In this document: one piece after another, positions 28,159 through 32,905 of the stretch
Position numbering within the stretch: position 1 is the first letter of the stretch
How the letters are laid out: each line of letters opens with the position of its first letter
Assembly: GCA_963702535.1 (NCBI GenBank)
Contig: CAVPDG010000025.1
Coordinates: 237,315 to 301,314 of the forward strand
DNA from: an uncultured Chloroflexia bacterium
GTDB lineage: Bacteria > Chloroflexota > Anaerolineae > Anaerolineales > UBA4823
Length of the DNA stretch: 64,000 bases
Direction: 5' to 3'
The notes under the pieces: model-generated
Database searches by the model: none
Told to the model about the DNA's origin: nothing
The model's input: the letters and a program-made list of their open reading frames with translations, nothing else
Translations under genes and position numbers: made by a program

Positions 28159-28174
28159 TGGCACAAAACTTGCA
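28159..28174 (+). promoter_or_regulatory. sigma-54 (-24/-12) promoter upstream of rpoN
   Basis: TGGCAC-aaaac-TTGCA is an exact match to the TGGCAC-N5-TTGCW consensus. It ends 36 nt before the rpoN ATG (28211). A TATAAT hexamer (28181-28186) follows immediately. Confidence 0.7.
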
Positions 28175-28210
28175 ACAAGGTATAATCGAATAAATCCGCG
28201 AGGGAATGCC

Positions 28211-29759
28211 ATGATCTTGCAAGCACAAAGACAGACTCTGAGACCGATCACCACAGCCCACCTGGCGCAGACGATGACGCTCATGGGTCTTACAGCGGCT
28301 GAATTACAACAGAAAATCGAATCCGCCCTGGCTTCAAACCCAGCGCTGGAATTAGCCGATAAGCGTTTCTGTCCCACCTGCCACCGCCCGCTGGCGAACG
28401 AAGAGCCCTGCCCCATCTGTAGCCGCCCTCAGAGCGTGGGAATCGGCGAGCCAATCGTTTATGTCTCACCGCGCGAAGACTTCTACACCCCTCGCAGTGC
28501 AGCTCTACCGGATGATATTCCCGGCGAGGACCTGACAGCCGGGGTGGAGGAGCTTCCGATTTATGTTTTACGGCAGATTGCACCCGAGTTGCCTCCCGAA
28601 GACCGGGGCATCGCTGCGTATATCCTCACCAGCCTGGATGAAGACGGCTTGCTGAGAATTCCCCTGCTCGAGATCGCCCGCTATCACCATGTGCCCGTAG
28701 CCCGTGTAGAAAGTGTTCAACGCCTGATCCAGCGCGCTGAGCCGGTCGGCGTAGGCTCACAGTCCCCCCAGGAGGCGCTACTGGTACAGTTGGAGTTGCT
28801 TGCGGAGACGCGCCCGGTGCCGTCTCTAGCAGACCGGGCTATCCGTGAGGGGCTCGATCTGCTCAGCCGGCACCTCTATTTGGAGCTGGGGCGCGCCCTG
28901 GGCATCTCGACAGCCCGCGCCAGGGAAATAGCCCGTTTTATCAGTGAGAATTCAATCCATACCCGGCGCGCGCCCACTGGGAGATGTTCATAGCCCTCTG
29001 CCCCGCCGCAAGACACTTACCACATACCAGACATCATCATCTCGCTCTTTTTTTTTTTTTTTTTTTTTTTTTTTTTTTTTTTTTTTTGGGGGGGGGGGAT
29101 TGGGGAGATGTTCATAGCCCCTCCGCCCCGCCGCAAGACACTTACCACATACCGGACATCATCATCTCGCGCCTGATCCTTCGCCTGATGCGCCGCTGGT
29201 CATCGAGGTGGTCTCTCCCCTGGCAGGGCAGGTACGCGTCAATCCGTTATTCAAGGAATACTTGCAACAGGCGCCTGCCGAAAAAGCAGAGGAGTGGCAG
29301 GCAGATCTGGAGCAGGCAGCTTTGCTCGTCAAATGCCTCCAGCAGCGCAATCACACCATCGTCCGCCTGATGCAGCGCCTGGCCGCGATTCAGCGCAGCT
29401 TTATCCTGCACGGTGATGCATACCTGGAACCCTGTACGCGTGCCAGCCTGGCGGATGAGCTGGGTGTGCACGAATCAACGATTTCACGCGCGGTCTCCAA
29501 CAAAGCGGTACAATTACCCAGCGGCAGGATTGTGCCCATGTCCAGGCTTTTCGACCGCAGCCTGCACATCCGCACGGCACTGCGGACGCTGATCTCTCAA
29601 GAGACCAAGCCTTACACCGATACGCAGCTGGCGGAGATGTTGGATCGGCAGGGATACGCCGTAGCGCGGCGAACAGTGGCTAAATACCGGGCAATGGAGG
29701 GTATACTGCCGGCGCACCTGCGCACCCAAAGCCATCCGGCAGTTTCGCTCATGAAATGA
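28211..29759 (+). CDS. rpoN: RNA polymerase sigma-54 factor; interrupted by a 123-nt duplication/homopolymer block and at least 2 further frame breaks
   Basis: Region I MILQAQRQTLRPITTAHLAQTMTLMGLTAAELQQKIESALASNPALEL. C-terminal HTH ADELGVHESTISRAVSNK and RpoN box ARRTVAKYR (ORF 29208..29759). The middle part is readable as ...ISEN/FNPYPARAHW/GDVHSPSAPPQDTYHIPDIIISR/PDPSPDAPLVIEVVSPLAGQVRVNP only after corrections at ~28949, removal of 28978-29100, and a correction at ~29172. Confidence 0.85.
28978..29170. repeat. 68/70-nt imperfect direct repeat flanking T40-G11 homopolymers (probable assembly artefact)
   Basis: Copy 1 spans 28978-29045, a T-run 29048-29087, a G-run 29088-29098, and copy 2 spans 29101-29170. 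The copies differ at 4 positions (GGG vs GGGG, one extra C, T/C, A/G). Only copy 2 keeps the rpoN reading frame. Confidence 0.85.
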
Positions 29760-31724
29760 ATCCACCCCCTCAATTCTACACACTGCCAACCTTACGGCGC
29801 GCCCCCGGTCAGGCGGACTTTGAGGCGCTGCTCGACCTGCTGCCAGTTCCTGCACTGCTCCTCGATGCCAGGAGCAAGCGCGTGGTGCTGGCTAACGCTC
29901 GGGCAACTGAGCTGACCGCGTATACACGGGCGGAGCTTGCCGGTATGGATTTCGAGCGTCTCTCCGCCAATCCCACAAGCCAGGCGGCTTTGCAGAAGAG
30001 CACCACGGAAGCGGATACGCTGCCGCTGGCGCTATTGAAAAGGAATAAATCACAGGTCGAGATCGTCGCCAGTTTCCAGAAGCTATCTTCTCAGAGCCGG
30101 TGGATTCTGGCATCTCTGGAACCGGCTGAGCAAGTGCAGCGGCGCATGATGGAGAGCACGCGGCGGGGTGAGGTCATCGACAGCATGAAAATGATCAGCG
30201 CCGCCATCCACCAGCCTCACTTGAACAGCGCCGCCCAGGATATGGTAGAAGCCGCCCGCCAGATGACCAAAGCAGATACCGCCGCCCTATACCTGCAAGA
30301 ACTGGCTGGCACAGGTCAGGAAATCCTCATGCCCAGGCTGATCGTTTCTGGCGCCGCGGGGGTCCTCCCTGATGCGCTTCCCGCCCAGGATATGGCGCAC
30401 CTGCGCCGCCCCCTCATCTGGACGCCTGGTAAGCGTATCGCCAGCAGCCTGCATCTGGCAGCCCGTTCCAACAGCCTGGCATACCTGGCAAGCGCTCCAT
30501 TGGGCAGCAGCTCGGCTGCCATCGGCGTCTTGGCTCTTGCAGGCAGCGCTACGCCCTCCCTGGAATTGCTCCTGGTGCAGGTCGAGATACTGGCAGATGC
30601 AACGTCCGCTCTGATCGAGCATCACAGCCGCGCCACGAGCCTGGAGGCAGACTTGCTGGAGCTGAAGCGCACGGCAGCGATCCGGGCGCTCGTTGAGAAC
30701 ACGATCGACGAGGCGGTCATCGTCCTGTCTCCCGAGCTCGACTCTCACGCGTATGAACCAGGCAGCAGAAGCAATCCTGGGGTACTCGTCTGGGGAAGCC
30801 GAGGGGCAGCCCGTAGATCACATCCTCATCGCCACAGAATCCCTGATCCCCATGCTTAAAAACGCGCTCGATGGACTACCCACCTTGAAGGCAGAAAACT
30901 TGCACATCTACCGCCGAAACGGCGAGACGTTCCTGGCGCAGGTAAGCGTTCTCCCTGCCCGCATCGAAGATAGCATACAAGGGACGATCCTCTTGATCCA
31001 GGATATGAGTGAGAAAGAGCAAATCCAGGCTCAAGCCCAGCAGTTGGAGCAGCGCGCCTTACTGGGTGAAGTCACGGCGATCTTCGCTCACGAAGTGCGC
31101 AATCCGATCAACAACATCAGCACCGGCTTGCAATTGATGGGTTACAACCTGCCAAACGACGATCCGAACCAGGAGATCATCAGCCGTTTGCAGGCCGATT
31201 GTGACCGTCTCGGAGAGCTGATGAAATCGGTGCTGGCATTCTCGCGCCCGACAGAATATGAGATGGAGTCCGTGGCGATTGGACCCTTACTGAATCGCCT
31301 GCTCGAGCGCCAGCGCTCACGCAGCGCCACGCCGCCCATCCAGACCCACATGCAGATCGAGACCGGCACGCCGGATGTCCGAGGCAACGCCCGCGCTCTC
31401 GAACAGGTATTTTCCAACCTGATCACCAATGCAGCCCAGGCGATGAGCGACACCGGCGGAAGCATCGCGGTTAAGGTGCGCCAGGTGGTGGCTGGCGAAG
31501 AGCGCCGTTACATCCAGATCGATGTCGCCGATAACGGACCCGGCATCCCCAAAGAGCTTCAGGAACGCATCTTCCAGCCGTTCTTTACAACCAAGCCCAA
31601 TGGCACGGGTCTCGGTCTGGCGATCACCAAGAGAATCATCACCGCACACAAAGGGAATATCCAGGTCAGCAGCTTCCCTGGCGGAACCGTGTTTCACGTA
31701 CAATTGCCCGCCATGGAGGCATAA
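29756..31724 (+). CDS. PAS/GAF sensor histidine kinase (NtrB/AtoS-like); frame break near 30740
   Basis: The ATG overlaps the rpoN stop (ATGA). N-terminal PAS-like and GAF-like regions and a second PAS (MNQAAEAILGYSSGEAEGQPV). H-box FAHEVRNPINNIS, ATPase boxes NLITNA, DNGPGIP, GTGLGLAI. Confidence 0.85.
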
Positions 31725-32905
31725 TGAGCTTCACAATACTGATTGTAGATGACGAGGATCATGCTCGCTTGAATATCGGCACGTTCTTGACCGGTCAGGG
31801 ATATGAGGTCATCGGTGTGCCCACCCTGGGGCAAGCCAGGGAGACCCTTCTACGAGGCAATGCAGACATCATCTTGTTGGATGTCCAACTGCCGGACGGT
31901 TATGGACCAGACCTGCTGGAAGAGACAGCCCGTATGCCGATGCGCCCGCCGATCATAATGATTACCGGTTATGGCGATATCGAAATGGCAGTGGAGGCAA
32001 TGCGCAACGGCGCGCACGATTTCCTGCAAAAACCAATCCAGCTTGCCCAACTCGAGAAATCCATCCAGCGTGCTTGTGAGATCGTCGCGATGCGGCGCGA
32101 GCTGGCGCACCTGCGCCGGGCGCAGCACGAGCAGTTCGATTTTATCGTCGGTAAAAATCCCAGCATGCAGGTGCTGTTCGACCACGCTCGGCGTGCCGCA
32201 ACCGCCTCCGTTTCCGTCCTGATCACCGGCGAGACGGGGACAGGGAAAGAGGTGCTGGCTAGCGCCATCCACCAAATGGGCGCGCGCGCCAGTAAACCCT
32301 TCATCGCCATCAATTGCGCCGCTATCCAGAGCACCGTGCTGGAATCCGAGCTGTTCGGATACGAGTCTGGCGCGTTCACCGGCGCGGATAAGCGCAAACA
32401 CGGTCTGATGGAAGTTGCCGAAGGCGGCGTGCTGTTCCTCGATGAAATCTCCTGGATGCCAGTCGATATGCAGGTCAAGTTCTTGCGCGCTCTGGAGGAG
32501 CGCGCCTTCCGGCGAGTGGGCGGCACGAACTTGATCCATGTCGATGTTCAGCTCCTGGCAGCCTCGAACCGCAATTTGAACGCCTTGATGGAGGAGGGGC
32601 TTTTCCGAGAAGATTTATATTACCGGTTGAAAGTAGTCGACCTGCACCTGCCGCCGTTGCGCGAGCGCAAAGAGGATATTCCCACGCTCGTTGGCTTGTT
32701 TATTCGCAAAAACAATCCCAAAATGGGCTTGAATATCCAGGATGTCACACCCCGCGCCATGCAGGCTTTAATTGCCCACCAGTGGCCCGGGAATATCCGC
32801 GAGCTGCGCAATATCATCGAGCGCGCCATGTTGTTCTGCGACGAGGCTTCAATCGACCTGCAGCATTTGCCCCCTGAGTTGGCAAACCTTTCTTCAATTC
32901 ATTAA
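31724..32905 (+). CDS. sigma-54-dependent response regulator (REC + AAA+), no C-terminal DNA-binding domain
   Basis: The start overlaps the kinase stop (TAATG). REC domain (ILIVDDE, ILLDVQLPDG). AAA+ Walker A GETGTGKE, sigma-54 contact loop GAFTGA, Walker B VLFLDEI, GNIRELRNIIERAM. The ORF ends about 25 aa later, at the 3' end of a convergent gene. Confidence 0.9.
   Translation: MSFTILIVDDEDHARLNIGTFLTGQGYEVIGVPTLGQARETLLRGNADIILLDVQLPDGYGPDLLEETARMPMRPPIIMITGYGDIEMAVEAMRNGAHDFLQKPIQLAQLEKSIQRACEIVAMRRELAHLRRAQHEQFDFIVGKNPSMQVLFDHARRAATASVSVLITGETGTGKEVLASAIHQMGARASKPFIAINCAAIQSTVLESELFGYESGAFTGADKRKHGLMEVAEGGVLFLDEISWMPVDMQVKFLRALEERAFRRVGGTNLIHVDVQLLAASNRNLNALMEEGLFREDLYYRLKVVDLHLPPLRERKEDIPTLVGLFIRKNNPKMGLNIQDVTPRAMQALIAHQWPGNIRELRNIIERAMLFCDEASIDLQHLPPELANLSSIH

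Follow-up and report, generated by a model that had tools for sequence, protein, structure and literature searches.

A sigma-54 operon with a predicted composite promoter and an activator lacking a DNA-binding domain in an uncultured member of the Anaerolineae

The stretch of DNA analysed here (64,000 nucleotides of contig CAVPDG010000025.1, hereafter the window) comes from an uncultured bacterium of the class Anaerolineae (Chloroflexota). Three consecutive genes on its forward strand encode an alternative sigma factor known as sigma-54 (rpoN), a soluble sensor histidine kinase and a response-regulator sigma-54 activator, and an element of the sigma-54 -24/-12 type lies immediately upstream of rpoN (Table 1). 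The best explanation of this locus is that it represents the core sigma-54 regulatory operon of the organism. Sigma-54 systems are usually modular, with one constitutive sigma factor and many activators, each with its own enhancer. If our interpretation is right, one self-controlled operon here unites the sigma factor with its sensor and with an activator that needs no enhancer, and this layout is kept across a class of abundant, poorly studied bacteria.

An exact-sequence look-up of the activator returned no entry on record, so homologues and the closest relative were used instead. Scanning of species-representative genomes for the activator yielded 52 Anaerolineae loci (L001-L052) and 28 outgroup loci (L053-L080). 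The closest relative found, L081, encodes an activator 91% identical to that of the window in a syntenic neighbourhood with 77% DNA identity, and it served as the reference for aligning the window and locating indels and frame breaks.

The order rpoN-kinase-activator is found in about 48 loci and in every Anaerolineae locus with enough flanking sequence, with a median gap of 6 nt between rpoN and the kinase gene and of 1 nt between the kinase and activator genes. In the window, the stop codon of rpoN overlaps the start codon of the kinase gene as ATGA (29756-29759), and the kinase stop overlaps the activator start as TAATG (31722-31726), which agrees with the translational coupling recognized in the preliminary description of this locus. 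A terminator scan of the operon gave no more matches than expected from shuffled sequence, and the operon strand had none from rpoN to the activator stop; no RNA family was found in an Rfam scan of positions 27000-43000. The three genes form one tightly packed operon. The kinase carries the His box FAHEVRNPIN, no transmembrane segment is predicted in it, and its intact orthologue in L081 is 656 amino acids (aa) long.

The rpoN gene of the window is read in two fragments. The N-terminal fragment (28211-28993) matches the Pfam domains Sigma54_AID and Sigma54_CBD, and the C-terminal fragment (29208-29759) matches Sigma54_DBD and contains the RpoN box as ARRTVAKYR. Directly after region I lies an insert with four cysteines (Cys4; 28370-28423, residues 54-71) of the pattern CxxC-N10-14-CxxC, which resembles a zinc ribbon and is present in all 48 of the 48 related loci checked. 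It stands where the sigma-54 proteins of E. coli and Klebsiella have the acidic region II. The intact orthologue of L009 scores 250 bits against the NCBIfam model TIGR02395, just below its cut-off of 277. The Anaerolineae protein is a divergent sigma-54 that carries a Cys4 insert in region II, and nothing specific was found in the literature on zinc ribbons in sigma-54.

The element upstream of rpoN matches all 11 specified positions of TGGCAC-N5-TTGCW, with GG and GC exactly 10 nt apart. It ends 36 nt before the ATG of rpoN, which is preceded by a GAGGG ribosome-binding site at 28200-28204; the exact match and its position are as they had been given in the preliminary description. Two exact copies of TGGCAC-N5-TTGCA occur in the window (28159 and 37775), compared with 0.10 expected per window from dinucleotide-preserving shuffles of the 64-kb sequence. 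That description had put the expected number at 0.03 in 128 kb, calculated for equal base use. When a position weight matrix built from sigma-54 sites of the related loci was run over the window, the rpoN site obtained the best score (27.9), followed by sites at 36406 (24.5), 37775 (23.1) and 41633 (20.7); the next-best site, at 3285, scored 13.9, and shuffled sequences yielded 0-2 matches at or above 12.

Conservation of the motif in relatives, the comparison by which this element was to be judged, also speaks for a promoter. A match of at least 9 of the 11 positions is located 33-85 nt before the rpoN start in 46 of 49 related loci, 27 of which match at all 11 positions, and in the three most distant of the 49 loci the motif is found 170-215 nt upstream of rpoN. 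When the sequences are aligned by the motif, its TGGCAC and TTGCA blocks show pairwise identities of 0.89 and 0.99, against 0.30 over the 20 nt that precede the motif and 0.44 just downstream of it. These results support the view that a genuine sigma-54 promoter, conserved across the Anaerolineae, precedes rpoN. The alternative that the motif is a functionless chance match has been refuted by the comparative data: one 11-base match in a window of this size is conceivable, but position and orientation are kept in divergent loci whose flanks are randomized, and the motif recurs before three other orthologous gene groups.

A sigma-70-type promoter is predicted at the same site. The TATAAT hexamer downstream of the sigma-54 element, from which a dual promoter had been considered possible, lies 17 nt from a -35 hexamer that uses bases of the -24 element. 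A -10-like box (TATAAT or TATACT) is kept across the related loci in two exact registers. In the first register, found in 12 loci including the window, the box lies 6 nt past TTGCA, and the hexamer 17 nt upstream of it reads nTGGCA. In the second, found in 26 loci, the box lies 18 nt past TTGCA, and the hexamer 17 nt upstream reads TTGCAN. By comparison, such a box is present at only about 2 of 34 other putative sigma-54 promoters of these loci. We conclude that the rpoN promoter has the appearance of a composite, in which a predicted sigma-70-type promoter takes one sigma-54 element as its -35 hexamer, namely the -24 element in the clade of the window and the -12 element in the other clade. 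The overlap has been maintained although its geometry was rebuilt between the two clades.

The third gene of the operon encodes a protein of the bacterial enhancer-binding protein family in which the receiver domain (Response_reg, E = 6e-25) is followed by the AAA+ domain (Sigma54_activat, E = 4e-67). The motifs GETGTGKE, DE and GAFTGA are read in its sequence, as are D9/D10, D53, T81 and K103 of the receiver domain. No HTH_8 domain was found in the 393-aa protein by Pfam search, and the lid domain ends 5 residues before the stop codon. This is in line with the preliminary description, in which the protein had been noted to contain GAFTGA, to lack a Fis-type helix-turn-helix (HTH) and to end at the 3' end of a convergent gene with no room for such a domain. 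Indeed, the stop codon of the activator gene overlaps that of the convergent gene, whose 488-aa homologue in L081 aligns down to position 32905, and an HTH hidden past the end of the activator could be ruled out, as the coding sequence of the convergent gene reaches the activator stop.

The absence of the DNA-binding domain is not peculiar to the window. The best 120 database matches to the activator are 76-91% identical to it and 387-397 aa long, none of them contains HTH_8, and those with a named source come from Anaerolineales or Chloroflexi. About 46 intact orthologues from the Anaerolineae end at 386-409 aa, shortly past a conserved LFCD..ID..HLP, and have no HTH. Outgroup activators, which are about 45% identical, are 445-465 aa long (mostly 454-456) and end in a Fis-type HTH; the loci that encode them, nearly all labelled Desulfobacterales or Deltaproteobacteria, do not have the activator beside rpoN. 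Because the orthologues are uniformly short and the outgroup retains the Fis-type HTH, the missing domain is best supported as an old and fixed feature of the clade and not as a truncation. Because the outgroup activator is in addition unlinked to rpoN, both the loss of the domain and the joining of the activator gene into the rpoN operon would date to the Anaerolineae lineage. The protein reaches none of the NCBIfam equivalog cut-offs, and it is not a member of the FlgR family (288.6 bits against model NF049963, cut-off 750). The closest solved structure is that of Aquifex aeolicus NtrC1 (PDB 1NY5, E = 7e-94 over residues 4-380).

The sigma-54 motif is not confined to rpoN. A degenerate form of it matches 94 times in a total of 2.0 Mb, the window and the 52 Anaerolineae loci being counted on both strands, compared with about 4 matches expected from base frequencies; the operon strand carries 86 of the 94, and almost every one is followed, after 25-90 nt, by the start of an open reading frame (ORF). 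Three further sites in the window precede genes whose orthologues carry the motif as well. The first lies before a gene at 36455-37811 that is frameshifted in the window and encodes a 453-aa protein of unknown function with no Pfam domain; at least 9 of the 11 positions match before its orthologue in 9 of 11 loci. The second, an exact match, lies before the cell division gene ftsZ, and at least 10 of the 11 positions match there in the window and in 9 of 9 related loci with ftsZ (L005, L006, L008, L009, L037, L038, L040, L042 and L081). The final codons of the preceding gene contain this site, and because the encoded residues differ (DGTSIA versus VGMDFA) while the DNA of the motif is preserved, the pattern points to selection acting on the DNA. 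The third lies before a gene for a 108-aa protein with two transmembrane segments, and an orthologue occurs in 28 related loci, 26 of which have the motif before it; in many relatives this small membrane protein gene directly follows the activator gene. Thus, the same motif is predicted to drive at least three conserved targets other than rpoN, including ftsZ, and the module is not self-contained as it had been called in the preliminary description.

Table 1. Features of the sigma-54 locus and of its predicted target promoters (window positions).
Feature	Position	Strand	Basis or remark
Predicted sigma-70-type promoter, GTGGCA-N17-TATAAT	28158..28186	+	Consensus scan, 10/12; -10 box TATAAT at 28181-28186
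Sigma-54 -24/-12 promoter element, TGGCACaaaacTTGCA	28159..28174	+	Exact match; predicted transcription start site ~28184-28187
rpoN (sigma-54), interrupted	28211..29759	+	Pfam domains, three-frame reading, L081 alignment
Insertion inside rpoN, 123 nt	28976..29098		Absent from L081
Soluble sensor histidine kinase, split	29756..31724	+	Pfam PAS-GAF-PAS-HisKA-HATPase_c
Response-regulator sigma-54 activator, 393 aa	31724..32905	+	Response_reg, Sigma54_activat, AAA_lid_14
Convergent gene, homologue of 488-aa L081 protein, frameshifted	32902..34426	-	tblastn pieces 34351-33164 (frame -1) and 33516-32905 (frame -2)
Sigma-54 promoter-like element, TGGTACATTTCTTGCA	36406..36421	+	33 nt upstream of the 453-aa gene
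Exact sigma-54 element, TGGCACAAGTATTGCA	37775..37790	+	47 nt upstream of ftsZ (37838-39049)
Sigma-54 promoter-like element, GGGCATAATTCTTGCA	41633..41648	+	54 nt upstream of the 108-aa gene (41703-42029)

Based on these features, we consider it probable that the operon constitutes a sigma-54 switch that is independent of enhancers, amplifies itself and has a sigma-70 promoter as a backup, positive feedback being combined with competition at the basal level. In this scenario, the sigma-70-type promoter would supply basal amounts of sigma-54, kinase and activator, and with such basal expression a sigma factor gene whose transcription requires that very sigma factor could get started. At the overlapping site, sigma-54 holoenzyme would sit in a silent closed complex and compete with sigma-70 holoenzyme. 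The likeness of the activator to NtrC1 suggests that its unphosphorylated receiver domain may keep the ATPase off. The kinase would sense an intracellular signal and then phosphorylate the activator, presumably at D53. The phosphorylated activator would form a ring and remodel every sigma-54 closed complex from solution. The closed complex at its own operon would be among them, giving positive feedback, and the operon would be induced together with its regulon; ftsZ, the 453-aa gene and the small membrane protein gene would be remodelled targets as well.

Several points weigh against this interpretation. Both promoters are predicted from sequence alone. The direction of the feedback cannot be read from the sequence, and the overlap with the sigma-70-type promoter would fit pure repression equally well; rpoN of Rhizobium leguminosarum is negatively autoregulated according to a citation in PMC3538637. 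Another, DNA-binding activator may be present elsewhere in the genome. Finally, rpoN and the kinase gene as deposited here cannot yield full-length proteins. Of the positive-feedback switch put forward in the preliminary description, accordingly, the promoter of its own and the activator without a DNA-binding domain stand; the sign of the feedback does not follow from them, and negative autoregulation is equally predicted by the overlap as long as the activator is off.

The first alternative is that the operon is subject to negative autoregulation only. The sigma-54 site would then serve as an operator, at which a dead-end closed complex blocks sigma-70 holoenzyme and holds the level of sigma-54 constant, and it would never be fired. 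The exact superposition of the sigma-70-type hexamers on the sigma-54 elements in both clades predicts mutually exclusive binding, and the case of R. leguminosarum offers a precedent. Nevertheless, we regard pure repression as unlikely, and as less likely than positive feedback, because such an activator, lacking a DNA-binding domain, is unable to tell promoters apart and because no other site in the window fits the consensus as well as that of rpoN, which scores above all three other predicted targets. If these fire, rpoN should fire too.

Alternatively, a DNA-binding activator encoded elsewhere may drive rpoN through an enhancer, with the activator of the operon serving other promoters or having another role. 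Enhancers can lie within coding sequence. However, a search of the 200 nt upstream of the rpoN promoter in the related loci revealed no non-coding motif that is conserved. The 7-mers enriched in this region were rejected as enhancer candidates, for they belong to the beginning of the coding sequence of the divergent neighbour, and this gene differs between the clades: it encodes proline dehydrogenase in the clade of the window and is trmFO-like in the other. Its coding sequence begins 50-150 nt upstream of the motif, leaving a spacer of 50-150 nt that is not conserved. Moreover, rpoN and the activator gene are linked in every locus, and a search of 1.02 Mb of Anaerolineae DNA yielded no second gene with GAFTGA, which is a weak negative. 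We therefore think it improbable that another activator is responsible. From the architecture of the activator together with the absence of a conserved upstream motif, we infer that it probably works on the holoenzyme from solution and without an enhancer.

The third alternative, to which we likewise give little credence, is that the module is decaying in this organism, the frameshifts and the insertion being real and the promoter a relic. Both genes had been taken as intact in the preliminary description, and they are not. Relative to L081, rpoN of the window has two 1-nt deletions, near 28951 and near 29175, as well as an insertion of 123 nt, and one extra base near 30739 splits the kinase frame into ORFs at 29756-30859 and 30693-31724, so that three lesions of rpoN and one of the kinase gene fall within 1.8 kb. 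The insertion consists of a divergent copy of the next 52-70 nt (28994-29045 versus 29119-29170, 96% identical), followed by 40 T (29048-29087) and 11 G (29088-29098), the sole homopolymer tract of at least 8 bases in the window. The two rpoN fragments are spaced by 262 nt in the window, compared with about 141 nt in every relative, and the orthologues in relatives are intact proteins of 455-503 aa. A frameshift of its own is present in rpoN of L081, near 6720-6848.

Decay of the module is not what the surroundings suggest. Over about 20 kb, alignment of L081 proteins also reveals broken frames in no fewer than five other genes (one MoeA-like, the convergent one for 488 aa, the one for 453 aa, and two that follow ftsZ), which brings the genes affected in this stretch to at least seven (breaks at ~24587, 28951, 29175, 30739, 33160-33516, 37128-37219, 39053-39145 and 39830). 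The lesions of rpoN are confined to about 225 nt (28951-29175) around the T and G tracts and the imperfect duplicate, a pattern that typically arises where a read end was joined wrongly or is of low quality. In addition, no further damage is seen in the activator, the promoter or any of the protein motifs, which are 77-91% identical to relatives. The contig as a whole thus appears error-prone, and because breaks of the same kind occur in at least five other nearby genes, those in rpoN and the kinase gene, together with the insertion, are most likely assembly errors and not signs of decay.

The self-amplifying switch that we favour is composed of parts of a known kind in what appears to be a new combination. 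Activators that lack a DNA-binding domain had been cited in the preliminary description, with Chlamydia CtcC and Helicobacter FlgR as examples, and the literature agrees: CtcC, FlgR and FleT are described, CtcC and FlgR being listed as type Ic (PMC3162934), and activation from solution has been reported for CtcC (PMC7482065) and for the truncated DctD250 (PMC3844500). An rpoN gene transcribed by its own holoenzyme is indeed unusual, as had been stated, but it is not unprecedented. A sigma-54 promoter before rpoN has been documented for the rhizobial prxS-rpoN2 operon (PMC3538637) and inferred for several bacterial classes in a 2025 survey that does not cover Chloroflexota (PMC12316311). The initial interpretation of the locus is therefore largely right, without being unprecedented.

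By architecture, the locus is similar to the CtcB-CtcC system of Chlamydia, where a kinase is paired with a receiver-AAA+ activator of about 390 aa without a DNA-binding domain (386 aa in CtcC, PMC7482065). In both cases, enhancer-free action on sigma-54 holoenzyme would be expected, and the regulon would relate to cell-form and envelope functions and not to nitrogen metabolism. In Chlamydia, however, rpoN lies outside the operon and its transcript is roughly constant (PMC7482065), whereas here the operon begins with rpoN, behind a predicted sigma-54 promoter. The FlgS-FlgR pair of Helicobacter and Campylobacter likewise combines a soluble kinase with an NtrC-type activator without a DNA-binding domain (PMC3162934), but FlgR governs flagellar genes and is unlinked to rpoN, and the window protein falls outside the FlgR family. 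Aquifex NtrC1 has the same arrangement of receiver and AAA+ domains, and the protein of the window differs from it in stopping 5 residues past the lid domain.

With respect to the promoter, prxS-rpoN2 of R. etli and M. loti resembles our locus in that rpoN is transcribed from a sigma-54 promoter and amplifies itself, with a separate weak promoter giving the first molecules (PMC3538637). That gene is a second, symbiosis-specific copy of rpoN, and it is activated by NifA bound to an upstream activator sequence, the activator not being co-transcribed. In contrast, the operon described here has its own kinase and a predicted enhancer-independent activator, and no upstream activator sequence was found within 200 nt. 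Promoters of the glmY/glmZ type are similar in that sigma-70 and sigma-54 promoters are superimposed and the two holoenzymes compete there (PMC3844500). They differ in driving small RNAs and in needing the DNA-binding GlrR, whereas here the sigma factor's own gene is driven, in two registers in two clades. In our literature search, no paper was found on sigma-54 in Chloroflexota describing such an operon, nor was a description found of rpoN, kinase and activator in one operon, of a composite promoter on a sigma factor's own gene in two registers, of class-wide conservation of such a layout, or of a sigma-54-dependent ftsZ promoter.

If the positive-feedback reading holds, the operon would illustrate, in compact and natural form, how a sigma factor can be switched in an all-or-none manner, and a minimal enhancer-independent sigma-54 module could be attractive in practice as an orthogonal expression device. 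Two leads are of most value, the composite promoter and the predicted sigma-54 promoter before ftsZ; the latter, if true, would link the switch to cell division, a connection so far unreported for sigma-54. It is tempting to speculate further that sigma-54 of the Anaerolineae and its single enhancer-independent activator form a master switch, self-amplified via the composite promoter and directly driving ftsZ and lineage-specific envelope genes, so that an intracellular signal sensed by the PAS/GAF domains would decide on division of these filamentous bacteria. We put this forward only tentatively and consider it rather doubtful as a whole. Within such a scheme, the lineage-specific Cys4 insert of sigma-54 may add a further layer of control.

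Some neighbouring features deserve mention. The convergent gene that ends at the activator stop belongs to a pair of paralogous genes on the reverse strand (32902-36385), encoding proteins of about 490-520 aa without a match in Pfam or NCBIfam; the pair is convergent with the operon and lies between it and the ftsZ cluster. In the leader of the small membrane protein gene of the window, no significant fold was found. In relatives where this gene follows the activator gene, a strong leader hairpin buries the AGGAGG ribosome-binding site, with z-scores of -2.9 to -7.6 (L016, 11197-11238; L019, 11200-11246; L020, 11209-11250; L022, 11200-11246; L024, 10242-10285; L051, 11196-11242), and the sequences of the hairpin arms vary among these six loci. 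Downstream of the small membrane protein gene of the window, positions 41981-50424 encode several consecutive TPR-repeat proteins and a protein of 930 aa that weakly matches Peptidase_C25. In L046 and L050, the sigma-54 motif precedes a gene for a protein of about 850 aa of unknown function.

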